Part shown: one piece after another, positions 21,175 through 60,501 of the stretch
Layout of the letters: each line of letters opens with the position of its first letter
How positions within the stretch are numbered: the first letter of the stretch is position 1
Source: Octopus vulgaris
Lineage: Eukaryota
DNA: 64,000 nucleotides
Assembly (NCBI GenBank): GCA_951406725.2
Contig: OX597840.1
Location: 33,542,001 to 33,606,000 of the forward strand
Direction: 5' to 3'
Notes under the pieces: generated by a model
What the model saw: only the letters and a program-made list of their open reading frames with translations
What the model was told of the DNA's origin: nothing
The model's database searches: none
Position numbers and translations under genes: made by a program

Positions 21175-21242
<68 letters not shown>

Positions 21243-21563: not shown

Positions 21564-21625
<62 letters not shown>

Positions 21626-21947: not shown

Positions 21948-22011
<64 letters not shown>

Positions 22012-22457: not shown

Positions 22458-22489
<32 letters not shown>

Positions 22490-25355: not shown

Positions 25356-25394
<39 letters not shown>

Positions 25395-25414
25395 AGAAAT
25401 TTATAGAGAAAAGC

Positions 25415-25446
<32 letters not shown>

Positions 25447-25528
25447 GTATGTATGTACGTATGTATGTACGTATGTATGTATGTATATATGTATATATAT
25501 GTATACACACATATATATATATATATGT

Positions 25529-25567
<39 letters not shown>

Positions 25568-25629
25568 AGTGAGAGAGAGTGTGAGAAAATTATAGAGAAA
25601 GGTATATACACATATATAGAGAGAAAGGC

Positions 25630-25670
<41 letters not shown>

Positions 25671-25674
25671 CACA

Positions 25675-25732
<58 letters not shown>

Positions 25733-26954: not shown

Positions 26955-27460
26955 GTATCATACATCAAAATGAAGCTGGTCCTCTGTGGATCGCATCCCT
27001 ACTTCTCAACATAGTCACCGTTTCTCTCAATAGCAATGTTCCACCTTTGAATGAGAGCGTGTATCCCTGACCCGTAAAATTCTGTTGACTGTTCTTTGAG
27101 CCACTTCTTCACTACAGTTTTCACTTCCTCGTCACTGGAATAATGTTTGCCTCTCAAATCCTCTTTCATGGGGCCCAAGAGATGATAGTCTGAAGGCGCT
27201 AGATTATTCCAGTGACGAGGAAGTGAAAACTGTAGTGAAGAAGTGGCTCAAAGAACAGTCAACAGAATTTTACGGGTCAGGGATACATGCTCTCATTCGA
27301 AGGTGGAACATTGCTATTGAGAGAAACGGTGACTATGTTGAGAAGTAGGGATGTGATCCACAGAGGACCAGCTTCATTTTGATGTATGATACATGTTTTT
27401 GTGTTGGTAATTATACCTGTCCTAGACAAAATGGTATTACTTTTTGACTCACCTTCGTAT
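26955..27460. mobile_element. mariner 3' end arranged as an ~190-bp hairpin, with a TIR
   Basis: YSSDEEVKTVVKKWLKEQSTEFYGSGIHALIRRWNIAIERNGDYVEK is encoded on both strands. The TIR-like end is tactttttgactcaccttcgTA. Confidence 0.8.
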
Positions 27461-29289: not shown

Positions 29290-30115
29290 TGTCAGTGATT
29301 TTGTCCAAGGCGAGCCGTTTAATCTGATCTTCGATGTGGTTGAACAACCCGAGTTACGCACCCTGTCGAGAAGCGTTCCTCCAGAGGAACCCCTTTCCGG
29401 CCCCCTGTATTTGCACAGCAGCTCGAGCTTGAGGAATTAACAAACCGTTCAGCTAAGCACACCCTCGAGTAACATTAAAACAGAGGCCGTTTGGAGTATC
29501 CCCATTTTGGCCCCTTGTATACGCACAACGGTTCGGCCTGGAGAAATTCACAGACCGTTGAGCTACAGACTCTTTTGAATAACATTACTACAGTGATCGT
29601 TACTACAGTGAATAACACTACTCCAAAGGTTGTTCGGAGGCTCCCCATGTGGTCGCGACGATGTTCTATGTGGAGATGTACACTGACTGCCGAACTACGA
29701 ACCATGTCGGGTAACATTACTCCAGAGGCCGCTTGGAACATTTCTATTTCGGTCAGGAAAAAAATCACTGACGGTTAGCTAGGAAAAAAAAACATTGGCC
29801 TCTGAGCTACGTACCCGATCGAGCAACATTACTCCAGAAGCCGTTCGGAGGATTCCCATTTTGCCCACAGGTATTCACGTGGCGTCTCGACCAGAAAAAA
29901 AACATTGACCTCTGAGCTACATATCCGGTCGAGTAACACTACTCCAGAAGCCGTTCGGAGGATTCCCATTTTGCCCACAGGTATTCACGTGGCGGCTCGA
30001 CCAGGAAAAAATCATTGACCTCTGAGCTACGTACCCGGTCGAGTAACAATACTCCAGAAACCGTTCGGTGGATTCCCATTTTGCCCACAGGTATTCACGT
30101 GGCGGCCCGACAGAA
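29290..30115 (+). repeat. ~110-bp minisatellite
   Basis: tctgagctac occurs at 29801, 29911 and 30021, with more degenerate units upstream. Confidence 0.8.
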
Positions 30116-30217
30116 ACATCGATTACAGTTCAAAGTCAACAAGACTTGAGAGAGGTGAGAGCGTTCCTTGTTTCAGAGGAAAGTTACAAAAATTTAACTA
30201 ATTAAATTAAAAAGAAA

Positions 30218-30289
30218 TGCGTCAGCCGGGAGTCGAACCCGGATCGACTGCTTGGAAGGCAACCATGCTAACCGTTACACCACTGACGC
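30218..30289 (-). tRNA. tRNA-Gly (TCC)
   Basis: Identical 72-nt sequence to 17419-17490, with a downstream oligo-T. Confidence 0.95.
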
Positions 30290-30526
30290 TCGTTAGCTAC
30301 ACAAAACTAATTTTAGTTTATATTTTCTTAGAAAATAAAGAAAAATGTTTGTGAATATATATGTACACGCCCACGCCCGCGCTCATAAACACATGTATAC
30401 ACTCGCACGCATATACACACTCGCGCGCGCACGCACGTCCATATGGAAGAGGTTGAGTTTCGAAAGAGTGCATGTATGTATGTATGTATGTATGTATGTA
30501 TGTATGTATGTATGTATGTATGTGTG

Positions 30527-30557
<31 letters not shown>

Positions 30558-30797
30558 GTATGTATGTATGTATGTATGTATGTATGTATGTATGTGTGTG
30601 TGTATGTATGTATGTATGTATGTATGTATGTATGTGTGTGTGTATGTATGTATGTATGTATGTATGTATGTATGTATGTATGTATGTATATATGTATGTA
30701 TGTATGTATGTATTATGTATGTATGTATGTATGTATGTATGTATGTATATGTGTATGTATGTATGTAAGTATGTATGTATGTATGTATGTATGTATG

Positions 30798-30831
<34 letters not shown>

Positions 30832-30869
30832 TATATGTATGTATGTATGCATATATGTATGTATGTATG

Positions 30870-30903
<34 letters not shown>

Positions 30904-31252
30904 TGTATGCATATATGTATGTATGTATGTATGTATGCATGTATGTTTGTATGTATGTATGTGTGTGTGTATGTATGTATGGCACAGATGTGGAGACGGG
31001 TGCATAGATTGGAATGTAGTTTGTATTTTTTTCCTAACCCCCATACTTACCGAGAAAATCGATTAAAACTTTTCTAATGGAATTTCCCTATTCTTTCTGT
31101 CATTAAAACAATCAGTTGCTTAGAAGCTATTTTCTGACGGGGTGGAGGTCAGGAAATTCGCATATAGCTGGAAGCTCCAATTGAAACAGGGAACCCGAAA
31201 TGATAAGGTTGACAAACGCTGTTATAGATTATGCCAAACCGAAAATGATTAT

Positions 31253-31660
31253 AGGCGCAGGAGTGGCTGTGTGGTAAGTAGCTTGTTTACCAGCCACACG
31301 GTCCCGGGTTCAGTCCCACTGCGTGGAACCTTGGGCAAGTGTCTTCTACTATAGTCTCGTGCCGACCAAAGCCTTGTGAGTGGATTTGGTAGACGGAAAC
31401 TGAAAGAAGCCCGTCGTATATATGTATATATATATATATGCGTGTGTGTGTTTGTGTGTCTGTGTTTGTCCCCCTAGCATTGCTTGACAACCGATGCTGG
31501 TGTGTTTATGTCTCCGTTACTTAGCGGTTCGGCAAAAGAGACCGATAGAATAAGTACTGGGCTTACAAGAGAATAAGTCCCGGGATCGAGTTGCTCGATT
31601 AAAGGTGGTGCTCCAGCATGGCCGCAGTCAGATGACTGAAACAAGTAAAAGAGTAAAGAG
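31253..31660 (+). mobile_element. tRNA-derived SINE (family A, dominant in the window), full length
   Basis: Head ggcgcaggagtggctgtgtggtaag...ggttcagtccc, internal microsatellite, tail ctccagcatggccgcagtcagatgactgaaacaagtaaaagag. Other copies are near 1-210, 2605-3183, 10880-12003, 37195-37610, 40685-41020, 45348-45770, 49780-50150, 58635-59005, 59183-59583 and 59760-60200. Confidence 0.85.
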
Positions 31661-31759
31661 TATAGACACATCATCCAAACAGACCGGGTGAAACCGGGCT
31701 TAGCTGCTAGTAACATAGACATTAATGGTTCACTCATTATTTTACAGCTTTGATAATGG

Positions 31760-32460
31760 GTGCTGCAAAAAATCGCAATTAGAGCCATTTTACGCTACCC
31801 CTGGACAAAAAGATTGAGTTCATGGGCAGTGGCAAAAGGAATTAATGATGAAGATGACCAGGGAACTGTCAAAGAATATCTCACAGAAAAATTGGTTCCG
31901 ACATTTCAAGGAAGATAACTCCAGCTTCCATAACAAACCAAGGTCAGAGAGAGACTTTCTGTTGCGCATGATGAGGCCTTACTTGAAATGGCTGAACAAT
32001 AGCCAAGCGCAAGCACTCGTACATTGCTGGCGGAGCTTGGCCCTTCACGAAGCACCATCAAATGACATCTTTATAAGCTCAGCCTTGGGAACAAACGCTG
32101 TCGAGAAGCCCTTCATGAACTGACCAATGACCAGCTTCAAAGATGTTCGAACGTTTGTAAACATCTCTGGCCAAATCGTCCAGATGTCAGTTTTGGGTGT
32201 CGAACTGTAACTGCAGATGAAAAATGGATCTACTTTCGTAATCCCAATAAGAGAAATCAGGGGTCTCATTCCGGCCAGGCTTCAGAATCTGGTGTCAAAC
32301 AAGGGCAGTTTGAAGAGAAGGTCATGTTTGTGTGTTTGGTGGAATTTCAAGTTGGTTTAGCACTTTGAGCTTCTCCTAGATGGCCATGCTGGGAACGCTA
32401 AACTTTATGCTCAACAACAGCAGCGAGTATATGATGCTTTGAAAACCCGCTACTCAGCAT
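31760..32460 (+). pseudogene. mariner transposase fragment (5' half), degraded
   Basis: NWFRHFKEDN...KPRS, TVTADEKWIYFRNP and KVMFVC motifs. Shorter copies lie at 33898-34320 and 35515-35935. Confidence 0.8.
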
Positions 32461-32709
32461 GGTAGAGAAACTGTACTGAAGCCCGACATATGCGTGTGTG
32501 CATCTTTATATTTGCGTTTGCTATCCTCCACCGTTTGACAATCGGTGTAGGTTTGTTTACAACTTGGTAATTCAGCGCTTTGGAAAAAAGAATTCCATAG
32601 AAACGACCGAAATAAGTGAAAGATGAAGGATATTTCATTGAAATTGTGTACAGAATTACTGATTTCAGAGGAAAGTTACAAAAAATTAACTAATTAAATT
32701 AAAAAGGAA

Positions 32710-32781
32710 TGCGTCAGCCGGGAGTCGAACCCGGATCGACTGCTTGGAAGGCAACCATGCTAACCGTTACACCACTGACGC
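32710..32781 (-). tRNA. tRNA-Gly (TCC)
   Basis: Identical copy with a downstream T5. Confidence 0.95.
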
Positions 32782-34389
32782 TCGGTCGTTCCTTTCCATC
32801 AATTTTATTATATATTTTCTTAAATAATAAAGAAAAATGCTTGTGAATTTATATGTATACGCCCACGCCCACACCCGCTCATAGACACATGTATACACTC
32901 GCACGCATATACACACACTCGCGCGCGCTCGCACGTCCATAGGGAAGTGGATGAGTTTCAAAAGAGTGTATGTATGTATGTATGTATGTGTGTATGTATG
33001 TATGTATGTATGTATGTATGTATGTGTGTATGTATGTATGTGTGTATGTATGTATGTATGTATGTATGTATGTGTGTATGAATGTATGTGTGTATGTATG
33101 TATGTGTGTATGTATGTATGTTTGTATGTATGTATGTATGTATGTATGTATGTGTGTATGTATGTATGTGTGTATGAATGTATGTATGTATGTATGTATG
33201 TATGTATGTATGTATGTATGTATGTGTGTATGTATGTATGTGTGTGTGTATGTATGTATGTATGTATGTATGTATGTATGTATGTATGTATGTATGTATG
33301 TATGTTTGTATGTATGTGTGTATGTATGTATGTATGTATGTGTATGTATGTATGCATGTATGTATGTATGTGTGCTCCGTATATGTATTCGTATGCGTGT
33401 GGTGTCGGAGCAGGCGAGAGATTTCTTTGGGAAGCTTTCAAGAATTATGTCCTTCCATGGAAAGGAACTTTGATGACGTGCAATTCTTGTGACCTACTTT
33501 TACCATTCTTACAACACAGCTCCTTCTCCCCTCACTTTCTCTCTTTTCTTTTCTTTGTCAATCTGTCGATCTGTCTGTCTGTCTGTCTCTCTTTACGCGC
33601 GCGCTCACGCACACAGACACAGACATAGACGCACACTCACACACACACACAAAATAATACGATCTTACTTATTTTACTGATTCCACGATTAAAAAATCAT
33701 TCCGGAAATTTCCACTTAGACAAACGGTTTCTGGCGAGGAAAAGTGTCCACTTATATGCATTCTTCTAAGTCCATATCTGCCAAAGTTTTGATTGAGGAT
33801 ATGTCTATTCATGATGATGATGGCTGCCGCCTTTGTGAGCAAGGAAGACCATCGCTGACCATTAAGCACATTGTGCACTCAGCCATAATTATACTGAAGC
33901 CCTTCACGAAGCACCATCGAATGACATCTTTATAAATCAGCTTTGTGGACAGACGCTGTCGAGAAGCCCTTAATGAACTGACCAATGACCAGCTTCAAAG
34001 ACGTTTGGACGTTTGTTAACAACTCTGGCCAAATCGTCCAGATGTCAGTTTTGGGCGTCGAACTGTAACTGGAGATGAAAAATGGATCTATTTTCGTAAT
34101 CCTAATAAGAGAAATGAGGGGTCTCATTCCGGCCAGGTTTCAGAATCTGTTGTCAAACAAGGGCAGTTTGAACAGAAGGTTATGTTTGTGTGTCTGTTGG
34201 AATTTCAAGTTGGTGTAGCACTTTGAGCTTCTCCTAGATGGCCATGCTGGGAACGCTAAACTTTGTGCAAAACAACAGCAGCGAGTATATGATGCTTTGA
34301 AAACCCGCTACTCAGCATTTGTAGGGAAACTATACTGAAGCCCGTCATATGTGTGTGTGTGTGTGTGCGTGTATGTGTGTGTGCGTGTG

Positions 34390-34424
<35 letters not shown>

Positions 34425-34425
34425 T

Positions 34426-34464
<39 letters not shown>

Positions 34465-34672
34465 ATCTTTATATTTGCGTTTGCTATCCTCCACCGTTTG
34501 ACAATCGGTGTAGGTTTGTTTACGACCTCGCAATTCAGCGCTTCGAAAAATAGAATTCCATAGAAATGACTGAAATAAGTGTAAGATGGAGGATATTTCA
34601 TTGAAATTGTGTACAGAATTACTGATTTCAGTGGAAAGTTACAAAAAATTAACTAATTAAATTAAAAAGAAA

Positions 34673-34744
34673 TGCGTCAGCCGGGAGTCGAACCCGGATC
34701 GACTGCTTGGAAGGCAACCATGCTAACCGTTACACCACTGACGC
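34673..34744 (-). tRNA. tRNA-Gly (TCC)
   Basis: Identical copy with a downstream T5. Confidence 0.95.
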
Positions 34745-35961
34745 TCGACGGTTCCTTCCAACCAATTTTGGTATATATTTTCTTAAATAATAAAGAAAAA
34801 TGCTTGTGAATATATACGTATACGCCCACGCCCGAGCTCATAGACACATGTATACACACGCACGTCCATAGGGAAGAGGTTGAGTTTCGAAAGAATGTAC
34901 GTATGTATGTATGTATGAATGTATGTATGTATGTGCATGTGCGTTGAGGTCTGTAAGTGTGGTCTATATATGTATTCGTCTGCGTGTGGTGTCGGAGCAG
35001 GCGAGAGATTTCTTTGGGAAACTTTCAAGAATTATGTCAATGCCACGGAAAAGAACCTTGATGACGTGCAATTCTTGTGACCTACTTTTACCATTCTTAC
35101 GACACAGCTCACTCTCAACTCACTTTCTCTCACTTTCTTTTCTCTGTCAATCTGTCTGTCTCTCTGTCTCTCCCTCCCTCTCTCACTCTCTCTCTATCTC
35201 TCTCTCTCTCTCTACGCGCGCAGACACGCACACAGACACAGACATAGACACACACACACACACACAAAATAATATGATCTTACTTATTTTACTGATTCCA
35301 CGATTCAAAATTTTTTCCGGAAATTTCAACTTATACAAACGGTTTCTGGTGAGGAAAAGTGTCCACTTATATGCATTCTTCTAAGTCCATATCTGCCAAA
35401 GTTTTGATTGAGGACATGTATATTCATAATGATGATGGCTGCCCCCTTTGTGAGCGAGGAAGACCATCGCTGACACATTAAGCACATAGTGCACTCAGAC
35501 ATAATTATACTGAAGCCCTTCATGAAGAACCATCAAATGACATCTTTATAAGCTCAGCCTTGGGAACAGACGCTGTCGAGAAGCCCTTCATGAACTGACC
35601 AATGACCAGCTTCAAAGACGTTTAGACGTTTGTTAACAACTCTGGCCAAATCGTCCAGATGTCAGTTTTGGGCGTCGAACTGTAACTGCAGATGAAAAAT
35701 GGATCTATTTTCGTAATCCTAATAAGAGAAATCAGTGGTTCCATTCCGGCCAGGCTTCAGTATCTGTTGTCAAACAAGGGCAGTTTGAAGAGAAGGTCAT
35801 GTTTGTGTGTTTGGTGGAATTTCAAACTGGTGTAGCACTTTGAGCTTCTCCGAGATGGCCATGTTGGGAACGCTAAACTTTATGCAAAACAACAGCAGCG
35901 AGTATATGATGCTTTGAAAATCCGCTACTCATCATTGGTTGAGAAACTGTACTGAAGCCCG

Positions 35962-35994
<33 letters not shown>

Positions 35995-36203
35995 TCTTTA
36001 TATTTGCGTTTGCTATCCTCCACCGTTTGACAATCGGTGTAAGTTTGTTTACGACCTCGCAATTCAGCGCTTCGAAAAATAGAATTCCATAGAAATGACT
36101 GAAATAAGTGTAAGATGGAGGATATTTCATTGAAATTGTGTACAGAATTACTGATTTCAGAGGAAAGTTACAAAAAATTAACTAATTAAATTAAAAAAAG
36201 AAA

Positions 36204-36275
36204 TGCGTCAGCCGGGAGTCGAACCCGGATCGACTGCTTGGAAGGCAACCATGCTAACCGTTACACCACTGACGC
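36204..36275 (-). tRNA. tRNA-Gly (TCC)
   Basis: Identical copy with a downstream T7. Confidence 0.95.
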
Positions 36276-46907: not shown

Positions 46908-47163
46908 TTAGGTTGTTGGAATATTCCTTTCGGTTATCTCCCGCTTGTCCACATTCTCTTTTCCGAGGAATTTCAACAATTCGAAATAGGAAAACACGAA
47001 AGCCCGGGTGATCGTCTGACCCTGCATCAACCCGATTGATTCGGCGTGAAGGGTCTGGGTAAAACGCAACCTCTCTTCCAGTTCTGCCAGGCGGCGGGCT
47101 TTGTCGTGGGCCAATTGCATCGCTTCCTGCATTATTTCTTTGGCTTCTTGCTCCATTCGTAAT
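46908..47163 (-). CDS. Terminal coding exon of a coiled-coil protein, probable KIAA2012 homolog
   Basis: Acceptor tttcag at 47164+, phase 2 matching the upstream exon. Encodes [16 protein letters not shown]...[19 protein letters not shown]...stop. The [10 protein letters not shown] motif resembles the KIAA2012 C-terminus (from memory). Confidence 0.8.
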
Positions 47164-47251
47164 CTGAAAGGAAATTATGTATGTATATATATATATACGT
47201 TTAAATATTTGTTGTGCAAGATTTTTTATGTGAAATCGTGTGTTGAAATAT

Positions 47252-47399
<148 letters not shown>

Positions 47400-47478
47400 T
47401 ATATATGTATGTATTGGCTTATGTTTTTCACTGTTTGATTTGCCTAATAGTGGTTTTATCTCTAATTTAATATAATAT

Positions 47479-47547
<69 letters not shown>

Positions 47548-47771
47548 GTATATATAATCGGCTTTCCCCGATTTCAGTTCTTCGTGTTTTTTTCTGTAGC
47601 GAGTAAATAATATGTGGAAATTGACGATTTAATAGTCTGTTATCAGCATATTGGCATTGAAATAATTTTCTTTTGCCCTTATTTATAAGTTGTTTATAAT
47701 TTTAACCGTAAAGGTATTTCAATATGCTGCCACATTTTTTGATGGAATTTTTTCTGTAAAAAAACTTCATC

Positions 47772-47829
<58 letters not shown>

Positions 47830-47919
47830 TGTATAATTTTTTACCGAATATGGTCCTTTTCCATACTGAAATACAACTAGGTGAAATTTGTTGATTTTCT
47901 TAAATTAATTATCTTTCAC

Positions 47920-48030
<111 letters not shown>

Positions 48031-48325
48031 GTGTGTGTGTATGTATGTATATATACATACATACATATATATAGAGAGAGAGATCAAAGAGGTAAAATGA
48101 TCCCATCAACTTTAAACGGAGTCTGGATTGATTCCTTCAAGGAATACCAGATAAGCCACCCATAATTGGATACAACTCACCCAACAAAAACTCACTACTT
48201 GAATGGTCCATAAACAAAACTTGACTTAAACAGGATTTAGATAATCCTTTCAGGTGGTGCTATTAAGTTAGACATGGCCTGGACCAATCTTTGGTCGAAA
48301 CATATCTAAGTTTTATCTAAGTTTT

Positions 48326-48358
<33 letters not shown>

Positions 48359-48408
48359 AAATGAAGAAAATGCTATATTATAATTAAGTAATTTAATTAG
48401 GTGAAAGC

Positions 48409-48474
<66 letters not shown>

Positions 48475-48684
48475 TCAATATAGGGTGGCAAAAATTTTAT
48501 TTGCCACCAGCGGCCTAGTGGGAAAAAATTAAATAGTCATAGACCATTTATAAGTTCAACATCACAATCAAGGAATGGCCATAATAGGCCATTCACCCAC
48601 TAGAAATAACAGCCAAAGCTTCAACCGCAAAATAACATCAATTCCGCAAACCAGGAGAAAATTAAAAAAACATTTACCCTGTAA

Positions 48685-48790
48685 TTTCTTATACGATGCA
48701 CCGTTTCATCTATTGTTTCAATGGTAAACTAACCTGATTAAATTAAATCAAGCCAATCTTCCATAGGCCGATAGATTCGTCAGTAAGAAA
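48685..48790 (-). ncRNA. Type I hammerhead ribozyme, canonical core, extended stem II
   Basis: TTTCTTA-CTGACGA-ATCTAT[long hairpin]ATAGAT-GAAA-CGGTGCATCG-TA-TAAGAAA. Stem I is 7 bp and the cleavage triplet is GUA. Confidence 0.85.
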
Positions 48791-49009
48791 CAGCCAAGAT
48801 CCGAGCAGATATTATCACGAGGCATCTCTATCCCTGCCTCGGCAATATCTGACCTAAAATTTTCAAATCATCGCACTCGCGCCAAATTTATCGGCAGCAA
48901 ATATAAGCCGCCGATTCCATTACGGAATTAACCAGAAAATTCATAATTAATCAATATAGGGTGGCAAAAAATTTCGTAGAATTTATTTGCCACATATATA
49001 TATATATAC

Positions 49010-49104
<95 letters not shown>

Positions 49105-49146
49105 CATATATATCTATATATGTGTTTGTGTGTGTGTGTGTTTTAC

Positions 49147-49297
49147 CTTTTCGCTTCCTCTTCAAGAATTCGTCGCTCTTCCTCTTCTGCCTTCTTCCGT
49201 TCGTACTCTTGACGTTCCTGAACCGCCATCGCTGCCAATCTCTCTTGCTCAGCTTTGCGAAATTCTTCCTCCTCCTGTCGCTGCTGTATCAGCATCT
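49147..49297 (-). CDS. Internal exon of the KIAA2012-like gene (E/R-rich coiled coil)
   Basis: cctaaacag acceptor and GTAAAA donor, 151 nt, phase 1 to 2. Encodes [43 protein letters not shown]. Confidence 0.85.
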
Positions 49298-49319
49298 CTG
49301 TTTAGGAAAAATAACCTCA

Positions 49320-49680
49320 GTTAGTTAGTTAGTTAATTTTTGCTCAAAAGCAAAAAGCAAGGCCATGTAGGGGGACATGGAATTAAGTACAGGGTGGTGT
49401 TCATGTAAAGAGTTCAGGCCACTTGATGTCAAGGGAGACTTTGAACAAAGCGGTCGTCGGCATCTTCACCATCTCGTCTGGCAGCTTGTTCCACGGATCC
49501 GCAACCCGGACGGAGAAAGCTCCTCTCCTTCGAAATCGTCGCAGGTAGAGCTTTTCGGAATGACCCCGCAGCCGACGCTCTGGAGCAGGAGTGAAGAACA
49601 GCTCTTTCGAGAGGTTGCACTTTCTGCTTATGATGTGAGCGAGAATGAGATCACCACGGCGGCGGCGTTTTTCTAGAGTA
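49320..49680 (-). mobile_element. CR1-like LINE 3' end
   Basis: LEKRRRRGDLI...LRGHSEKL...FSVRVADPWNKLP...FKVSLD, followed by a 3' UTR and an (AACT)n tail. Confidence 0.8.
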
Positions 49681-50339
49681 AATGACCGTACGTGTGCATA
49701 CAACACAGATACGTTGCTATGCACGCGCACACATACATACATGTATACAGACAGACAGACATGCGTATTCTTTTGTCGTCTGCTTGTTTCAGTCTTTTTA
49801 CTGCGGCCATGCTGGAGCACCGTATTGAAGAAATTGTAGGCGAATTAATCGACCCTAGTACTTTAGTTTTTCACTCGATCTCAGTTCGCCGAACCGCTAA
49901 GTTACGGGGACATAAACACACGAGCACTGGTTATCAAGCGGTAGTGTGGAACAAACGCAGACATACACAAAAAAAATACACACACGCACACATATATATG
50001 TATATATATACGTCGGGATTCTTTCAGTTTCTGTTTACAAAATCCACTCACAAGGCTTTGGTCAACACTTGTCCAAGGTGCCATGCAGTGATCTGAACTT
50101 CGAACCATGTGGTTAGGAAGCAAGCTTCTTACCACCCAGCCCCACCTGCACCTAAGTATATATTCACTATTACCTATATTTATTAATTTATTATTAAATC
50201 CATTTATACCTATCAGAGAATAGTTTTTCATTCTCACTAATATTTTCTCCTGCATACAAGTTACTACAGCCAAATACCAGACTGTATTCGAATCGAATTA
50301 AGCGAATCGGATATTTAAGAATGAGGTACTTTTTGACAA

Positions 50340-50442
50340 ATTACCTGAAGAAGCACATCTACACCGAATGCAGTACAACTATTCGTACAGAATCTCACCT
50401 GCGAGGTACGAATGCAAGATGGGTCGAAACGATCGTAGTGAT
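50340..50442 (+). ncRNA. Type I hammerhead-like motif with a large stem II insertion
   Basis: ATTAC-CTGAAGA-[~74 nt including CATCT/AGATG and ATTCGTAC/GTACGAAT]-GAAA-CGATCG-TA-GTGAT. Confidence 0.65.
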
Positions 50443-50465
50443 TAATAGAGAAACTCTTGAGTTCC

Positions 50466-50558
<93 letters not shown>

Positions 50559-50987
50559 TGTTTCTTTGTTAGCTACACAGGGCTGCACACAGACGGGACA
50601 AATTACAAGGTAGAGCTTTTCTGTTGGGGATAAAAAAAAATGGGGTTTGGTTTTCGATCAAAAGGGATCGTAAAAAGAAAGGAGTAAATAAAAAAAGGGG
50701 GGAAGGGAAATAAAATAAAAGGAAAAAGAAAAAATCGATCAATAGGGATCGTTATCAAAGAAATGTCAATATAAAGGGTAAAGGGGAGGACAGGTGAGGT
50801 TTACCCGTGGAAAGAAAAGCCTACGGAAAAGACCACGGTAACCTCGGTCAATGAAGTCACGTTATATTTTTTACAAAAGATAGATAGATAGGCTGATGGA
50901 TAGATAGAGACACACCGACATGTGTCCGTCTGTCTTGCTAGATAATCAACGTACAGGTAGGTACCCAAGTAAATAGTTGCAACGTAC

Positions 50988-51160
50988 CCTGGCGGCGGCG
51001 TTCTTCGTCCATTTGCTTCATTTTCAACTGAAGAATCTTCCTTGCATGTTCTTCCTTTCTCTTCTTCTCTGCCTCCGCCTCTTGAACCCTCCGCCGCTCC
51101 AATTCCTCCTCTTCTGCTTCCTTCCGTCGTCGTTCCTCTTCCATCTGTTGTCTATGTAAC
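50988..51160 (-). CDS. Internal exon of the KIAA2012-like gene
   Basis: ttctaag acceptor and GTACGT donor, 173 nt, phase 2 to 1. Encodes LHRQQMEEERRRKEAEEEELERRR...DEERRRQ. Confidence 0.85.
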
Positions 51161-51377
51161 CTTAGAACATCAACGACGGTTAAGAATGAAATGGTTATCA
51201 TATCGGATGTATTCTTATCATGTTATTGTCTTGTGTGCTCAACTTCTAATGGGGTAGTAGGGGCGCCGATTGACGTCGCGTACGGCATGTCTTAAAAGCT
51301 TTTTGAAATCTGTCGAAGACCATCTCGCTCTGCATATAGCTTCAGCAGAGTTCTTTGAGGAATAAGTGCTGTGTATA

Positions 51378-51417
<40 letters not shown>

Positions 51418-51418
51418 T

Positions 51419-51419
<1 letters not shown>

Positions 51420-51456
<37 letters not shown>

Positions 51457-51830
51457 CACAAACAGAGATAGACAGACAGGGACAGACAGAGACAGACAGA
51501 CAGACAGACAGACAGAGACAGAGACAGACAGACAGAGATAGGTAGACAGAGACAGACAGACAGACAGAGACAGACAGACAGAGATAGGCAGACAGGGACA
51601 GACAGAGACAGATAGACAGACAGAGATAGGTAGACAGAGATAGACAGACAGACAGAGACAGACAGACAGAGACACACAGACAGACAGACACACAGACAGA
51701 GACAGACAGACAGACAGACAGACAGAGATAGACAGACAGACAGACAGAAAGAGATAGACAGAGACAGACAGACAGACAGACAGAGACAGACAGACAGACA
51801 GAGATAGACAGACAGACAGACAGAGATAGA
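51420..51830. repeat. (GACA/GAGACA)n microsatellite, intronic
   Basis: Seen directly. Confidence 0.9.
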
Positions 51831-51870
51831 CTTTCAGAAGCTAAAAATCCTTCAAGATCTTCGTCCTTAC

Positions 51871-52085
51871 CTCGCTTCTTCCTCTTGTAATAAACGCTGG
51901 ACTTCCATTTCTTGGTGAATCCTCTCCTGGCGTTCGGCCGCTTCCTTTTCGCGCCGAATTTGCTCTTCTCTTTCGCGACGCTTCTTTTCCACCATCTCCC
52001 GACGTTTCAGCGCTCGAGCCCTCCTTTCGGCGGCCCGGGCCTCTTTCAGGGAAATTGTATTCGGCGGAACCTTATTATCGGTTGG
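51871..52085 (-). CDS. Internal exon of the KIAA2012-like gene
   Basis: atcgcag acceptor and GTAAGG donor, 215 nt, phase 0 to 2. Encodes [42 protein letters not shown]. Confidence 0.8.
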
Positions 52086-52339
52086 CTGCGATTGGTTTAG
52101 TTAAGTAGATAAGAGCGGTGGTGTGAGGTAGTGAGGGAGAAAAAGATAAGGTAATTGTAAATTCGGCTACATTTGTGTTTAAGACAAGAGGAGGAGGAAA
52201 AGGGAAAAGGGCAACGACGAGAAAAAGAAGAAGAGAGAAGCAGAAATAAAAGGAGCGGAAGAGAGAAAAGGAACGAAGATGAAAAAGGATGAAAAGGTAA
52301 AAAAAGTGAAAGAAGTAAATGAAAGAGGAAGAGGACGAG

Positions 52340-52456
52340 GCGGAAGAGGAGGAAGAAGGAGAAGGAGGAGAAGAAGAAGAAGAAGAAGAAGAAGAAGAAG
52401 AAGAAGAAGAAGAAGAAGAAGAAAGATAGGAGGAGGCGGAGAAGAAGAAGAAGGAG

Positions 52457-52488
<32 letters not shown>

Positions 52489-52620
52489 GAAAAGAGGAGG
52501 AGGAGGAGGAGGAGGAGAAGAAGGAGAAGAAGAAGAAAAAGAAGAAGAAGGAGAAGAAGAAGAAGAAGAAGAAGAAGAAGAAGAAGAAGAAGAAGAAGAA
52601 GAAGAAGAAGAAGAAGAAGA
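52340..52620. repeat. (GAA)n microsatellite, intronic
   Basis: Seen directly. Confidence 0.9.
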
Positions 52621-52761
52621 AATGAATCTGAAAATTAACTGCGATTCCTTCGATCCACATAATTCTGTTCGATCAAAGTTGACTTGAGTATTAAACAACA
52701 GCAACAACAACACAGCAAGCATTGTAAAATTAAAAGATAAAAAAAAACATACAAATCTCAC

Positions 52762-53103
52762 CTCTGTACAATCACGTGACATGTCGGCTGCAGCCATTTT
52801 CCCTGCTTGCGAGGTCAAAATTCGCTTCAGTTCATTTTTTATCTGCACCTCATCCTGAAGATCTAACGACGAGGATTTAGATTTTGAAGAAATTTCCACC
52901 GTCCCATTAACCTCTTGCTGTTGTTGCAGAAACTGTTGGTGTTGGTGTTTGTGATGCTCTCCCTTTCCCCCTCTTCCATTTTCTCCTCCCTCTATTAATA
53001 TGTCGTCGTCTGCCTTTCGATATCCACCATCTTCTTCATCCGTATCGTATGTAGTTTCTTCACCTCCTTGTTTTCCTTCGTCGTATTCCATTGTTTGTTC
53101 TCC
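52762..53103 (-). CDS. Internal exon of the KIAA2012-like gene (acidic/low complexity)
   Basis: ttttcag acceptor and GTGAGA donor, 342 nt, phase 0 to 0. Encodes GEQTMEYDEGKQ...MSRDCTE. Confidence 0.8.
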
Positions 53104-53366
53104 CTGAAAATATTCAATGAAAATAGTTCATTTTATGCGTATAAAAAAAACAACAAAATACTTGCGCAGACGACCGTTGAGTATTTTTTCCAACATACAC
53201 ACGCAAACATACGTATATACATACACACATACATACACACTCACATGTATACAAAGCACATAGACACACATACAAACGTATAAAGCACATGCACATATAT
53301 ACATGTGTACATGCGTACAAACATATATACATACATGCACACATATATACATGCGTACATACATAC

Positions 53367-53405
<39 letters not shown>

Positions 53406-53744
53406 CAAACATACATACATACATGCAATCATCTCACTAGAGTACATGCGTACATATATACATATATATACATATATTCATAGTTACAAAGTACATACTT
53501 ACATATTTACATACACACATAATACACATATACATACTTGCATGCATGCACATACATACACTTACAGACAGACAGACGTGGATGTGTGGTAAGAAGCTTG
53601 GTTCCCAATCACATGGTTCCGGGTTCAGTCCTACTGCGTGTCACCTTGGGCAAGTATCTTCTAGTGTAACCTGAGCCGACCAAAGCCTTGTGAGCGGATT
53701 TGGTAGACGGAAACTGAAAGAAGTCCGTCGTATATATGTATATA

Positions 53745-53816
<72 letters not shown>

Positions 53817-54121
53817 TAATTTAGGGTATCTGAGAGATACCACCACGCTGAACATATAGCAGTCAAAACCTGGACACTAAAGCCACATTAAATGTTCATA
53901 CAGCACAAGGGGAGAAGACAAAAGGACAAAATAAACTAGCAAAAATTACTGGATAATTCTGGCTTTAGAGTCAGGTTTTGACTGCTATTTCAGCGTGGTG
54001 GTATCTCTCAGTTATCCTAAATTTTAATTTTGGATAATTATTACCATTGAAAGGTTTTTATTCCTATGCTGGCCACTTGATAAGATCGATATTGAAATAT
54101 CGATCTTATCCTTATTTATAA

Positions 54122-54174
<53 letters not shown>

Positions 54175-54177
<3 letters not shown>

Positions 54178-54803
54178 CAGTATCGCCCGGCGTTGCTCAG
54201 GTTTGTAAGGGAAATAACTATAAAGCATTTTTAGAGAGTTATAGCCAAAAAATAGCAAAAAAATGGAAAAAAAATGATGGTAAATTTTTTTTGAGAGTTA
54301 AAAAAGGTGGAGTTGCGTCCCCTAGACGGTCTGTGGTTTTGGGTTTCTGATTCTCGACCCCATGTCGAATTTAGCGATTTTTTTCAGAACTGGGGGAACT
54401 TTTCAAAATTTTCGCTGCGTTAGTTTTGAATTATGACATTGGGCTATGTGTGTGTCAAGTTTCATCAGAATCGGTTGAAAGCCGTGGTCAGGGTGAGGGT
54501 ACAAGCAAACGGACACACAGACACACACACAGACAAACTGCCGTTTATATATAGAGAGATTTCAGAACTGGGGGAACTTTTCAAAATTTTCGCTGCGTTA
54601 GTTTTGAATTATGACATTGGGCTATGTGTGTGTCAAGTTTCATCAGAATCGGTTGAAAGCCGTGGTCAGGGTGAGGGTACAAGCAAACAGATGCGTGTGT
54701 CAAGTTTCATCAGAATCGGTTGAAAGCCGTGGTCAGGGTGAGGGTACGAGAAAACAGACACACAGAAAACGCACAGACAAACTGCCGTTTATATAGAGAG
54801 AGA
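54175..54803 (-). mobile_element. Non-autonomous Helitron with internal duplications
   Basis: The 3' end tagcagtatcgcccggcgttgctc is the reverse complement of the Helitron end above. The block 54383-54560 is repeated downstream. Confidence 0.7.
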
Positions 54804-55170
54804 TATATATATAATATAATTCGAGACAAAACCACCATTTTAAAAAGAAAACAAGGAAAGACTTAATCAATACATAAAATTTTAATATAAATTAAATAAA
54901 CCGCCACTACAAATGTTTCATGTCTGTTTTTTGCTTGTTGTTTTTTGGTTTTTGTACATTTTTAAATATGAGAACTTTTATAATAGGTTTTTATATTCAA
55001 TTGTTTATAGGGTTTATTTTAGATTATTTTAGATTATATATTGATTATATATAGATTATATATAGATTATATTTTTAATTTTATATTCTTTCATTGATAA
55101 TTTTATTATTTTATTATTTTAAATTATTTTAAATTATCTTTTAAAATATTGATATTTTTAGATCGAAAAT

Positions 55171-55214
55171 CCACCCGAAGATTGTCGGTAGCAGACATGA
55201 AACATTTGTAGTGG
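55171..55214 (+). ncRNA. Type I hammerhead-like motif, U4C core variant
   Basis: CCAC-CCGAAGA-TTGTCggtagcaGACAT-GAAA-CATTTG-TA-GTGG. Confidence 0.65.
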
Positions 55215-55541
55215 CGGTTTATTTAATTTATATTAAAATTTTATGTATTGATTAAGTCTTTCCTTGTTTGGTTTTAAAATGGTGGTTTTGTCTCGAATTA
55301 TATTATATAATAATAGAAATATTAAAATTACTAAGTCTCTCTAAAAGAGAACAGCGGCAGCGTTCCCGGAAAATAATAGTTATCGCCATACTAATATGGC
55401 ATTCCTATAAAAATAAGAATAAAGCCGTCCGCTTATTAGCTCCATGAGGCCATCGCCTTAAGTTAGCTATTTGATACACAAACTGTATCCATATAACCTT
55501 CGAACAAGGGAGGTCAGTCGCTCCACACTACTTGACCGGCA

Positions 55542-55583
55542 GCTACAGACGCGTTTCGGGGTATTGCCCCTTTTCAATGCAGC
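55542..55583 (-). ncRNA. Minimal type I hammerhead ribozyme, U3:A8 variant (inverted twin)
   Basis: Exact reverse complement of 55835-55876. Confidence 0.75.
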
Positions 55584-55834
55584 GTAGCCAGCCAGTAGGT
55601 GTCGCTTCCGACAATCTCTGTTCGATGGTTTTATTTACCTAGTTTCGGTGGAATACATCCACTTGTTTTCAATAATAGAAATATTAAAATTACTAAGTCT
55701 CTCTAAAAGAGAACAGCGGCAGCGTTCCCGGAAAATATTCTATTATTGAAAACAAGTGGATGTATTCCACCGAAACTAGGTAAATAAAACCATCGAACAG
55801 AGATTGTCGGAAGCGACACCTACTGGCTGGCTAC

Positions 55835-55876
55835 GCTGCATTGAAAAGGGGCAATACCCCGAAACGCGTCTGTAGC
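55835..55876 (+). ncRNA. Minimal type I hammerhead ribozyme, U3:A8 core variant
   Basis: GCTGCA-TTGAAAA-GGGGcaataCCCC-GAAA-CGCG-TC-TGTAGC, with a palindromic stem III and a GUC site. Confidence 0.75.
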
Positions 55877-56194
55877 TGCCGGTCAAGTAGTGTGGAGCGA
55901 CTGACCTCCCTTGTTCGAAGGTTATATGGATACAGTTTGTGTATCAAATAGCTAACTTAAGGCGATGGCCTCATGGAGCTAGTAAGTGGACAGCTTTATT
56001 CTTATTTTTATAAGAATGCCATATTAGTATGGCGATAACTATTATATTATATAATATTTTACTATAAAATTGGATTTAACCCTAAATCTGATTTTTCCCT
56101 GTAATTTTGGATTCATTCCCTAATATTTATTATTATATATATATATATACTCATACATACAGCCATACATATACATACTTACATACATACATAC

Positions 56195-56307
<113 letters not shown>

Positions 56308-56396
56308 TGTGTACGTGTGTATGTATGTGTATATGTGTATTATACCTGCACAAACTGTTTACTAAGTTGATAAAAAGAATAAACTATTCTACTTAC

Positions 56397-56686
56397 CACT
56401 TCCTCGTTTTGTTTAAAATCTAGTTCTGTAGATCCAATTCCATCAACGTCAGATTCAATTAAGGTTTCAATTTCGTTATCTGAAATTCTGCTAAGCAAAC
56501 TTTTTTCTTTTCCTACGTTTATTGACGATTGCAAATGACTTGTAACCATCTCCACCATGTTAACGCTGGATTCTCTACGTGATTCATCATGGCGACTGAA
56601 TTGTGTTTCAGCAGACGATATATTTCTAATTCGCTTGTTCTTTGATTTCTTCTTCGATTTGTGGTGTTTCTTCGATTTTGCTTTGT
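56397..56686 (-). CDS. Internal exon of the KIAA2012-like gene
   Basis: cattttcag acceptor and GTAAGT donor, 290 nt, phase 1 to 0. Open frame KAKSKKHHKSKKKSKNKR...DFKQNEEV. Confidence 0.75.
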
Positions 56687-56824
56687 CTGAAAATGGATGG
56701 GATTATTTCGTAATTCTTCTGGCCGTCTGAATGTTTTCAAATTTTCTGAGCTGATGTAGTCTTGTGAAGCTATTGATGAAAATCGCATTCATTTTCTCTT
56801 GAAATTAATCATTCTTACTGACAA

Positions 56825-57350
56825 GCAATCCAGAGAAGATTCACAAAGAAGATTGTCTCTTTGCAACAGCTCAGCTACTGGGATAAGTTGAAACAGCTAA
56901 GATTCTACTCCCTGGAGAGAAGACGGGTGAGGTATGCAGTAATATATGTCTGGAAGATCCTGGAAGGAATTGTGCCAAATTTTGGCATTGGAAGCTACAC
57001 CAATGCTAGAACGGGACGACACTGCATAGTGCCAAAGACCCCAGCAATGCCATCACGCTTCAGGACCAGCTTCTGCAACAGCCTGGGTTTCAAGGGCCCA
57101 CAGCTTTTTAATATTCTCCCAAAGAGTCTGAGGAACTTGCACAAAGTAGATGTAGCGGTTTTTAAATCAAAGCTGGACATCTTCCTGTCAAGAGAACCTA
57201 CCTCATGGCAAAGGTGCAAATGAGGGTAGCTATATGAAACTCCATGCTTCACCAAGTGCCACATATTAGAGGAGGCTCATAGTAATAACAGTGTAGCAAA
57301 ACGGCAGAGCCCCAGCATGGCTACAGCTCTGAGCTGAAACTAGAGAAAAA
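56825..57350 (+). mobile_element. CR1-group LINE 3' end
   Basis: AIQRRFTK...LSYWDKLKQLRFYSLERRRVRY...GPQLFNILPKSLRN...FKSKLDIFL. Confidence 0.8.
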
Positions 57351-57554
57351 AAATAGGCAGACGCTCTAAAACTTTGGGATGATGGGTAAGTCGATTACAT
57401 TGACGCCAGTACTCAACTGGTACTTTATTTATCGACCACGAAAGGATGAAAGTCAAAGCCGACTTTCTGCGGAATTCAGAACGTAAAGAAAAGTTGCCGC
57501 CAAATATTTTTCTGGCGTGCTAACGATTCCGACGGTTCGCAGCCTTTCTGGAAA

Positions 57555-57950
57555 TCTCTCTATATAAAACTGAAGTTGTCTGTGTATGGCAGGTTTGGTA
57601 GCCTTCAACTAACACTATCTCCTCCGAGACCCTGTGGCGCAAGTTGACCAAAATTGAGAGTATGATAGAAGAAGGCTTGCTCTTCATTCCGTAGAAGATA
57701 AAATTCAAATCGAACCATGTTAACACCGAGAATTATTTACATCAAAAAGGTGCTTTTTTTCTATGAAAATCCCTATTTTTTGCGATTTTTTAACTGCTGT
57801 GTCGCCATTTTTCGGTGTATTTCAACCAGAAAAATGTTCACTTAAAGAGAATAACAAGCTACATAATGCAAAATTTTTACTTTTCAAAAATTCCAATTCT
57901 AAAGGGTCGGAAAGAAAAGAACCCCGAACAACGCTGGGCTATACTGCTAG
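57555..57950 (+). mobile_element. Non-autonomous Helitron (copy of 8553-8939)
   Basis: Sequence alignable by eye along its length, ending in CTAG. Confidence 0.8.
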
Positions 57951-58078
57951 TTAATAATAAAGTTACAAGCCTTTAAAGTTATAACATTTTAGACAATCCG
58001 AAACAGCGTTAAGTTTTTCAACTCACAAGACGAGGCCCACTTTTATTAAGAGAAAAGCACTTGGGAAACCAAACTTAC

Positions 58079-58198
58079 GTTTAGAACTAATTGATGGCTT
58101 TCTTCGTTTCTCTGTCTTTCTCTTTGGCCCTTTCTGGTTCTGGTTGATGTCGGTATTGCTGTACAACTGCTTCAGCTCGCCAGAATAATCTACTCGAC
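58079..58198 (-). CDS. Internal 120-nt symmetric exon of the KIAA2012-like gene
   Basis: gcagcag acceptor and GTAAGT donor, phase 1 to 1. Encodes GRVDYSGELKQLYSNTDINQNQKGPKRKTEKRRKPSISSK. Confidence 0.7.
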
Positions 58199-58473
58199 CT
58201 GCTGCAACGATGATGATGGCGGTAATTGTTGGTGGTGGTCGTATTGGTGGCACAAGAGAGAGAGAGAGAGAAACAGAGAAAGAGAGAAGTATAGCTGTTT
58301 TATGAAACAGTACTGGTTATGGATGATCTGTGGTGGTGGTCATGGTAATGGCGAAGCGGTAGTTGTGGAGAAAATAGTGCCGCTAGTTGCTAAAGATAGT
58401 CACCCTCAACCTGGTCTGCTACACACGAACACTCGTCAATCCAACATACTCCACTTGGACACTCAACACTGCA

Positions 58474-58580
<107 letters not shown>

Positions 58581-59965
58581 CATATATACATATATATATA
58601 TATACATACATACACACATACATACATACATATATAGGTGCGCCCGTGTGGTAAGAAACTTCCTTCCTAACCACATAGTTCCGAGTTCAGTCCCACTGCG
58701 TGGCACCTTGGGCAAGTGTCTTCTACTATAGCCTCGGGCCGACCAAAGCCTTGTGAGTGAATTTTGTAGACGGAAACTAAAAGAAGCCTGTCGTATATGT
58801 GTATATATATATGTGTGTACCTATGTTTGTTCCCCACCGTCGCATGACAACCGGTGTTGGTGTGTTTACGTTGCCGTGACTTATATCTTCGGCAAAGAGG
58901 TCGATAGAATAAGGACTGGGGTCGATTGGTTATGCCAAAAATTCTTCAAGGCGGAGCCCCAGCATGGCCGCAGTGTAATGACTGAAAGACGCAAAGGAAA
59001 GGGGTAAAAGGATATAACATGCAGAGATACGGGACATTGAAATTGGGTATGTTTATGTTTATTGCAAAATTTTAGACAACCGGAAATCGCGTTGAGATTT
59101 TCACCTCACAGGATGGGGCCCGCATCCGCTGAGTGGAAAAGCCCTTGGGAACCTAAACATACTTACGCTTAGAACTGATTGAGGAGTGGCTGTGTGGTAA
59201 GTAGCTTGTTTACGAACCACATGGTTCCGGGTTCAGTCCCACTGCGTGGCACCTTGGGCAAGTGTCTTCTGCTATATCCTCGGGCCAACCAAAGACTTGT
59301 GAGTGGATTTGGTAGACGGAAACTGAAAGAAGCCCGTCGTATATATGTATATATATGTGTGTGTGTGTGTGTGTGTTTGTCCCCCTAGTATTGCTTGACA
59401 ACCGATGCTGTTGTGTTTATGTCCCCGTCACATAGCGGTTCGGCAAAAAGAGCCCGATAGAATAAGTACTGGGCTTATAAAAGAATAAGTCCCGGGGTCG
59501 ATTTGCTCGACTGAAAGGCGGTGCTCCAGCATGGCCACAGTCACATGACTGAAACAAGTAAAAGAGTAAAGAGAGTAAAGAGTATGACTTTCTTCGTTTC
59601 TCTGTCGTTCTCTTTGGCCTTTTCCGGTTCCGGTTCCGGTTCTGGTTGGTGTTGTTGTTGTTGTAACGGATGCATTGATTAGATAACACGTGACAGACTT
59701 CAACATGGATGAAAAATTTTAACTTAACCGTTCTAAACCCAGCCAAACAATTTCTTTTTCTTTTTTACTTGTTTCAGTCATTTGACTGCGGCCATGCCGG
59801 AGCACCGCCTTTTAGTCGAGCAAATCGACCCCCAGGTCTTATTCTTTGTAAGCCTAGTACTTATTCTGTCGGTCTCTTTGCCGAACCGCTAAGTAACGGG
59901 GACGTAAACATACCAGCATCGGTTGTCAAGCAATGCTAGGGGAACAAACACAGACACACATAAAT

Positions 59966-60030
<65 letters not shown>

Positions 60031-60221
60031 CATATATACGACAGGCTTCTTTCAGTTTCCTTCTACCAAATCCACTCACATGGCCTTGATCGGCCGGAGG
60101 CTATAGTAGAAGACACTTTCCCAAGGTGCCACGCAGTGGGACTGAACCCGGAACCGTGTGGTTGGTAAGTAGGCTACTTACCACACAGCCACTCCGTGCC
60201 TATCAATAAATATTTACTTAC

Positions 60222-60501
60222 CAATTTTAAATCCAGCTTTCTGTTCTGTCTTTGCTTTCTTATTTTTCCTTCCTGGTTTCGACACGACTTTGCGACTGGA
60301 CATCTTCGAGGGTTTTCCATCGGTTCTTTTAACAAACGGAGATAACTTATTTTTTATGGGTTGTTGTGTCTGACGCATCTTGACAATGGACGCCCATCGT
60401 GTTTTGCGTTGGTTCTTTACCGTAGATTCTTGTATCGTAGAATCAGATTCCTCCGATATTGTCACTTCGGTGACCTGTGAGGTAGAATTATAGCGGAGAT
60501 C
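60222..60501 (-). CDS. Internal exon of the KIAA2012-like gene
   Basis: caacgtag acceptor (5' boundary uncertain) and GTAAGT donor in phase 1. Encodes DLRYNSTSQVTEVTISEESDS...KAGFKI. Confidence 0.65.

Follow-up and report, generated by a model that had tools for sequence, protein, structure and literature searches.

The closest described relatives of the sequence studied here are hammerhead ribozymes of Penelope-like elements and of retrozymes. Natural covariation of positions 3 and 8 (U3/A8) was first reported, with several examples, by Perreault et al. 2011 (PMC3088659), where hammerheads with U3:A8 are said to be active in vitro on the strength of earlier work. Cervera and de la Pena 2014 (PMC4209133) described the U3-A8 core in the Cercyon Penelope-like elements of Schistosoma mansoni, with about 1,300 hits, as well as opposite-strand hammerhead pairs 100-700 bp apart in the same genome. 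According to that paper, metazoan Penelope ribozymes are usually minimal and many of them cleave poorly in vitro, and the canonical metazoan hammerhead has helices of 6/4/1-2 bp and a palindromic loop and is active as a dimer. Natural U3:A8 cores and opposite-strand hammerhead pairs are thus already known, and the novelty given to the core in a preliminary description of the locus falls to these two publications. Non-LTR retrozymes were defined, with Penelope-like elements proposed as their mobilisers, by Cervera and de la Pena 2020 (PMC7229834), who report mussel retrozymes of 350-390 bp; Li, Clavereau and Pollet 2026 (bioRxiv 10.64898/2026.07.22.740005) argue that retrozymes descend from pseudo-LTRs. 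Inverted 5'-truncated copies are typical of endonuclease-bearing Penelope-like elements, whose cycle is called undefined (Craig et al. 2021), and Octopus vulgaris has 30 recently active Penelope families (PMC13282606). At AT-rich DNA, the purified Penelope-like protein of anole cleaves both strands and extends them; it initiates within the RNA and is a predicted dimer (Frangieh 2024). In L1 twin priming, as a review passage has it, the second end of the target pairs internally with the same RNA, inverting the 5' part. The comparison literature also included PMC6155905, PMC2920678, PMC2837043 and PMC9148063.

We compared these systems with a locus in a window of 64 kb, the whole stretch of O. 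vulgaris DNA that was analysed (Table 1). The locus probably represents one insertion of a non-LTR retrozyme of octopus, non-autonomous, high-copy and 362 bp long, that would have been moved by Penelope enzymes. The observations behind this reading are the unit length, the lack of a long ORF, the abundance, the U3:A8 consensus and the conserved fold, together with the target duplication, the head-to-head inversion and the microhomologies at the ends.

Table 1. Features of the inserted element and its borders, in window positions.
Feature	Position	Strand	Details
Type I hammerhead, right arm	55835-55876	+	U3 55841, A8 55846; predicted cut after C17 55870
Stems of right-arm hammerhead		+	stem II 55848-55860; stem III palindrome 55864-55869
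Right-arm ribozyme with extended stem I	55820-55890	+	6 bp, internal loop UAC/U, 7 bp, bulge, 5 bp
Left-arm hammerhead	55542-55583	-	identical to right-arm hammerhead; U3 55577, A8 55572; predicted cut after 55548
Left-arm hammerhead with extended stem I	55528-55598	-	
Degenerate hammerhead-like motif	55746-55782	+	UUGAAAA core, 5-bp hairpin, GAAA, GUA
Mirror copy of degenerate motif	55636-55672	-	
Left arm	55309-55737	-	1.18 copies of the 362-bp unit: positions 0-361, then 0-66
Right arm	55738-56045	+	inverted partial unit: positions 57-361 and 0-2
Terminal redundancy, copy 1	55309-55375	-	67 bp, unit positions 0-66
Terminal redundancy, copy 2	55671-55737	-	67 bp, 362 bp from copy 1
Left copy of target-site duplication	55297-55312	.	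16 bp, AT-only
Right copy of target-site duplication	56041-56056	.	16 bp
Host repeat, left part	55192-55308	.	also one arm of an inverted repeat with 54808-54926
Host repeat, right part	56057-56100	.	goes on past 56100; from contig depth and loose ends

A UUGAAAA core, read in the sequence and recovered by the scan, begins at 55841 on the + strand and at 55577 on the - strand. All required positions of the type I hammerhead core are present if the 3:8 swap is accepted as a natural variant, and sequence and scan both support the proposal that U3:A8 replaces the C3:G8 pair in a real hammerhead fold. On the 3' side of the core follow stem II (GGGG / loop CAAUA / CCCC), GAA, the palindrome ACGCGU, C17 of the GUC site and stem I. 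The elements that had been described as intact (GGGG/CCCC stem II, ACGCGU stem III, GUC site and 6-bp stem I) are therefore all in place. Stem I indeed has 6 bp, one of them G.U, but 12 further base pairs beyond an internal loop (UAC versus U) had been missed. Helices I (open), II and III measure 6, 4 and 2 bp around the core, stem III having a palindromic 2-base loop, and the duplex of the ACGCGU palindrome was computed at −7.5 kcal/mol. The internal loop past the 6 bp and the CAAUA of loop II are in place for a predicted loop 1–loop 2 contact, an arrangement that we take to resemble the Schistosoma loop-loop contact. An extra register is possible for the 3' strand of stem I. The two ribozymes are identical, as had been stated, although the arms that carry them are only 98% alike, and they do not face each other but point outward, with their 5' ends at the centre.

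Scanned on both strands with a relaxed hammerhead descriptor, the window returned only two matches, both in the foldback. The strict descriptor matched none of 4,000 dinucleotide shuffles of the unit, and shuffling the window gave one match per 20 shuffles versus the two real ones. The expectation that the variant would escape a standard search was borne out: at gathering score, Rfam reports no hammerhead family in the whole window, only five tRNAs; at E ≤ 10, none of its 21 matches in 55200-56200 is a hammerhead, and the 91-base stretch likewise gives none. The microRNA-precursor matches among those at E ≤ 10 were rejected, as they reflect the long hairpin. The five tRNA genes lie on the - strand at 17419-36275, 1.5-13 kb apart, have the anticodon loop UCC (Gly) and share one score and one sequence in the Rfam alignments; they are probably a tandem segmental array.

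The degenerate motif has an extra C after position 9 and is U-rich upstream and A-rich downstream like the minimal Penelope ribozymes. Stem I is shifted out of register by one base, the motif lacks G10.1, and its A15.1 is variable (8-52% of depth). A loose descriptor for the motif, fitted after the fact, was matched by 2 of 4,000 shuffles. The motif is a probable relic, possibly of the parent element; it has some of the features of the Penelope minimal hammerhead, and the main octopus motif has none of them.

The unit itself is 362 bp long and non-coding, with GC under 50% and one type I hammerhead. No ORF reaching 120 aa overlaps the insert, neither an ORF start nor an ORF remnant was found in or beside it, and Pfam gave 0 families for four nearby frames. 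Two fragments at 56822-57223 (+) and 49401-49844 (-), also with 0 Pfam families, are unrelated to the insert and presumably represent the C-terminal end of LINE reverse transcriptases, as which they read. Contigs fitting the unit, counted as assembled contigs in sequencing runs and not as genome copies, numbered 3,183, 2,522, 1,833 and 15 in four runs of four organism labels, and 79-87% of sampled words were present in 20 of the 24 listed runs (12 studies, six organism labels). A 392-base contig of run X19 (record 3) goes once round the unit with 362 + 30 bases, showing 0 differences over 55540-55737, core included, and 2 over 55849-56042. An end overlap of 30 bases marks a cyclic path in a k=31 (31-mer) assembly, and the main assembly path closes at 362 bp without an ORF. 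This cyclic contig is compatible with tandem arrays, with circles or with dispersed 1.2-mers like the studied copy; head-to-tail repetition is seen in the 1.18-mer at the locus and in the cyclic contig, and no dimer occurs among the contigs of the four runs.

In a circular fold the unit has an energy of −121 kcal/mol versus −85.6 ± 5.3 for 60 shuffles (z −6.7; 0 of 60 shuffles), and the ribozyme remains free to fold, with pair probabilities of 0.94-1.0 for stems I and II. For the linear 429-mer, z is −7.3. The unit is real, well formed and apparently structurally constrained. The exact ribozyme pattern had 0 matches in metagenome contigs. One degenerate-pattern match there was rejected, having no stem II pairing, and the loci in viral contigs, at least 120, were taken as chance, with 1 of 120 among the matches listed pairing stem II, without the rest.

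These data also bear on the alternative that an autonomous Penelope-like element left the arms as truncated pieces of its pseudo-LTRs, with the 362-bp period coming from one internally deleted source. The locus does show a partial tandem and an inverted 5'-truncated copy at an AT-rich target, as autonomous Penelope-like elements do. Opposite-strand pairs at 100-700 bp (PMC4209133), the argued origin of retrozymes from pseudo-LTRs and the 30 recently active Penelope families of O. vulgaris point the same way, and rare branches into an ORF could hide behind the low-depth cyclic contig. However, the unit has high depth throughout, its dominant path closes after 362 bp (X19 record 3), no trace of an ORF was seen in or beside the insert, and the ribozyme is canonical with a long stem I, versus the usually minimal ribozymes of metazoan Penelope elements. 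We regard this origin as improbable. There is no ORF for a reverse transcriptase with GIY-YIG flanked by pseudo-LTRs, as the insert holds no ORF and the unit closes on itself, and judged by its sequence the octopus unit is not an autonomous Penelope element. Of the inverted pLTR layout that had been called typical of Penelope, the inversion stands and the pLTR is not supported, the unit closing at 362 bp without an ORF.

Variation within the family was read from contig depth in four runs, which stood in for a copy-by-copy genome tally of bases 3 and 8; 40 of 54 variant rows are listed, 39 of them within the element, on 34 unit positions. Among these 40 of 54 rows there is no variant at U3 or A8, and none in 55839-55876, a stretch that holds 3 CpG sites (P about 0.02 if variants are uniform, for listed rows only and with the stretch chosen after the fact). 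A C3:G8 copy would require a T>C change on either arm. When the change-type counts of each run are set against the listed rows, no T>C change is unaccounted for in X4 and X19, and the C3:G8 version therefore makes up less than 2% of depth in these two runs. X2 and X3 each leave one A>G and one T>C without a matching row, for which mirror rows of the listed variants would account. Some divergent relatives, at less than 2% of depth, cross the core (for example X3 record 22, with 17 differences in 97) and could carry C3:G8. A single loose end in X4 (n=1) has N7 changed or a base added, with U3 and A8 kept. As far as these contigs tell, U3:A8 is the consensus of a high-copy family and covaries only in relation to other families. 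Neither the label of a rare variant nor that of a naturally covarying pair can accordingly be retained for the family, the latter by contig depth in the four runs.

Several variants preserve pairing. Position 55838 changes from G.U to A-U in 35%, 10% and 2% of depth in X3, X2 and X4, respectively, and stem I pairing is also kept by G.U to G-C at 55535 and by G-C to G.U at 55879. Double changes, each on a single X19 contig, convert T-A to G-C at unit positions 318/335 and T-A to C-G at 250/262, and those at 145/202 and 149/198 are complementary and not on one contig. Several other listed variants break predicted pairs if taken singly.

The tolerance of 3:8 exchanges is reportedly context-dependent, going by the title of a 2007 study of Przybilski and Hammann, and this would suit a ribozyme that is weak or dead, in a family that spreads from uncut transcripts with U3:A8 as a tolerated, inherited state. 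Both arms were copied across the uncut site, the 3' strand of stem I has its alternative register, 3:8 covariation is absent within the family, and many metazoan Penelope hammerheads cleave poorly in vitro (PMC4209133). On the other side, the core is complete apart from the paired swap, the stem I variants keep pairing, the variant-free stretch 55839-55876 (among 40 of 54 rows listed) compares with 34 variant positions elsewhere in the unit, and U3:A8 ribozymes have been reported active in vitro (PMC3088659). A weak or dead ribozyme is, in our view, unlikely, and self-cleavage by the ribozyme of the family is likely on the evidence of its sequence.

Aligned as an inverted repeat, the arms match over 311 bp (55370-55680 and 55738-56048) at 98% identity, with four internal differences and one at the edge. 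The direct repeat of about 65 bp that had been placed at 55310 and 55670 was found as one of 67 bp (55309-55375 = 55671-55737), with a spacing of 362. The last 4 bases of the left arm and the last 5 of the right arm are common to the target duplication, which shrinks to a minimum of 7 bp if these overlaps are assigned to the element (range 7-16 bp). Between the 16-bp duplications the insert measures 728 bp, that is, two 362-bp units + 4. Contig depth is high on both flanks, and the insert sits within another repeat. Six contigs in run X4 represent an empty target, passing from 55312 directly to the letters at 56057, and similar joints run from 55299 to 56044 (X2) and from 55300 to 56040 (X3); these contigs may be paralogous copies of the host repeat and not an empty allele.

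For a frame 300 bp to the right of the insert, 80% of the query aligns at 100% with a predicted Octopus sinensis protein. Exons of this protein flank the element on the - strand, at 56397-56804 (past the exon edge) and 52762-53100, and the insert therefore lies in an intron of a predicted Octopus gene. A predicted Octopus protein of 753 aa, of low complexity and labelled trichohyalin in its source, has at least 8 exons at 46911-60480 (-). Directly to the left of the insert, a 119-bp, 97% inverted repeat (54808-54926 / 55192-55309) forms a second foldback in the same intron, and its right arm is the repeat hit by the insertion.

A foldback could also arise from a DNA-level event after insertion, such as a template switch or an inverted duplication, or from an assembly artefact. 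No listed contig spans the whole stretch, and palindromes are error-prone in assemblies. Such an origin is nevertheless very improbable here, given that the distinct flanks rejoin to the observed empty site with the 16-bp duplication intact, that the arms differ at 4 positions and that many other head-to-head junctions occur in independent runs.

The geometry of the arms suggests how the copy was inserted. In unit coordinates, with the duplications excluded, the arms span 57-359 (right) and 0-424 (left). The outer arm ends each lie within one of only two CUAUUAUU motifs of the unit, and the CTATTATT motifs at these ends share 4 and 5 bases with the target. On the inner side, the left arm ends at unit position 0, adjoining the right-arm priming site (360-2) to within 3 bases, and the right arm ends at 57, at the left-arm priming motif (59-66) to within 10 bases. 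If ends were uniform, both end-to-end fits together would have a chance near 1 in 1,000, by a rough count made after the fact; the tiling was likewise noticed after the fact, at one locus. Both arms cross the intact cleavage site, and therefore the template was a circle or an uncut multimer and not a cut linear monomer.

In the proposed mechanism, a Penelope-type enzyme would cut both strands of the AT-rich target, 16 bp apart. Both target 3' ends would then anneal to the RNA at the two CUAUUAUU motifs through 4 and 5 bases of homology and be extended by twin priming, and the two cDNAs would be joined head to head. End-to-end continuity between the arms is a mark of twin priming, which Ostertag and Kazazian reportedly described for L1 in 2001. 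We infer the Penelope enzyme and the single template from this one locus; judged by titles and the starts of abstracts, a link between twin priming and Penelope was not found in print. In other copies, 14 of the 15 joints listed (47 in all) are head-to-head, antisense to sense, with varied breakpoints, and none of the 15 listed of 47 is tail-to-tail. A small palindromic hairpin at unit 21-39 (window 55336-55354) lies at one end of 7 of 16 head-to-head joints. It may be a stall or start site, or merely the place where a divergent subfamily stops aligning, and for the latter reason the cluster of breakpoints was not relied on.

The four arm differences, at 55405, 55426, 55982 and 55987, include two private to each arm relative to the family; three are A>G on the sense strand and one is a CpG decay. 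The A>G changes (n = 3) could reflect A-to-I editing of the template RNA. Private differences would also be expected had two separate RNAs been copied, such as a pair of monomer circles each used by one subunit of a dimeric enzyme, with the apparent fit produced by AT-rich microhomology joining. The anole protein is predicted to be a dimer (Frangieh 2024), both junction points are AT-rich, and breakpoints are scattered in other copies. The positions of the inner ends, within 3 and 10 bases of the opposite priming sites, speak against two RNAs with the chance estimated above, and we consider a two-RNA origin rather doubtful.

For the favoured reading, an insertion of a non-autonomous retrozyme, the life cycle can be drawn by analogy with known retrozymes. 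Tandem source copies would be transcribed, two hammerheads would pair their ACGCGU palindromes, cut at GUC and release monomers, and the monomers would be ligated to circles. The U3:A8 exchange would keep the 3:8 pair, and the extended stem I would offer a contact to loop II. At the locus itself, a read-through transcript in either direction is predicted to form a long hairpin in which the pair probability of stems I and II is 0. Each strand carries one ribozyme only, and stem III cannot close alone, with 2 bp around a 2-base loop. One ribozyme per strand and its masking by the modelled foldback suggest that this copy is probably dead or inert and could not release a monomer; cutting of the host pre-mRNA by it is unlikely on the same model. 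The earlier description of a functional ribozyme is thus not upheld for the locus, where the two motifs lie on opposite strands and are masked in the read-through fold. Function, if any, would reside in the tandem source copies.

A fuller history can be sketched, which we consider doubtful when taken as a whole: an abundant octopus retrozyme, overlooked by CUGANGA descriptors, with an active, tertiary-stabilised hammerhead fixed for U3:A8, would derive from a U3:A8 Penelope-like element, of which the minimal ribozyme would be the relic, and its insertions would record twin priming on circular or dimeric RNA, the A-to-I edits of which were carried into the genome. A retrozyme with a twin-priming footprint would, if true, give direct genomic evidence for the integration of animal retrozyme circles, so far only proposed. 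If end-to-end junctions hold across loci, the way in which Penelope enzymes integrate circular retrozyme RNA and produce inverted copies becomes testable by genome analysis alone. The family, with its thousands of copies, is also a natural test bed for the 3:8 exchange in a full-length hammerhead. Retrozyme surveys limited to CUGANGA would miss it, and the patchy distribution of retrozymes may partly reflect the search. Cephalopods show extensive RNA editing, and the 311-bp intronic foldback is a candidate substrate for it.

Finally, we compared the octopus unit with the published systems. Octopus has no mention in the main texts of PMC7229834 and bioRxiv 10.64898/2026.07.22.740005, and the main text of the O. 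vulgaris repeat paper (PMC13282606) mentions neither hammerhead, ribozyme nor retrozyme. An octopus retrozyme, a U3:A8 core in canonical retrozyme architecture and junctions that tile one RNA end to end were not found in the literature searched, which was mostly without subscription papers. The insert has in common with Penelope-like and L1 insertions an inverted 5'-truncated copy joined at its 5' end, an AT-rich target, the extension of both strands and an internal start on the RNA. It differs in that both primers have 4-5 bases of homology to one RNA motif; the start site of the anole protein, unlike the microhomology at the octopus insert, is not homologous to the cut DNA (Frangieh 2024). 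The arms moreover make up two full unit lengths together, which a linear monomer cannot give. With Cercyon (PMC4209133) the octopus family shares the covariation of the core, the high copy number, the link to Penelope and the opposite-strand pairs. However, the Cercyon motifs are minimal (long helix II, short helix I, extra base after position 9) and belong to the pseudo-LTRs of coding elements, whereas the octopus unit is non-coding, with helices of 6/4/2 bp and an extended stem I. The U3/A8 cases of Perreault et al. 2011, compared through passages that name neither host nor architecture, may overlap the octopus type. The closest likeness in architecture is to the metazoan non-LTR retrozymes, which are non-coding, 150-450 bp long and under 50% GC, with one canonical type I hammerhead, a short palindromic helix III, a self-paired circle, a long target duplication and many copies. 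The octopus family matches the many copies and a target duplication of more than 4 bp with 1,833-3,183 contigs in three runs and 7-16 bp, and the strongly self-paired circle with its z of −6.7 and compensatory changes. It departs from these retrozymes in the U3:A8 core, in its octopus host and in the arrangement at the locus, a 1.18-mer with an inverted partial copy in place of a tandem array.
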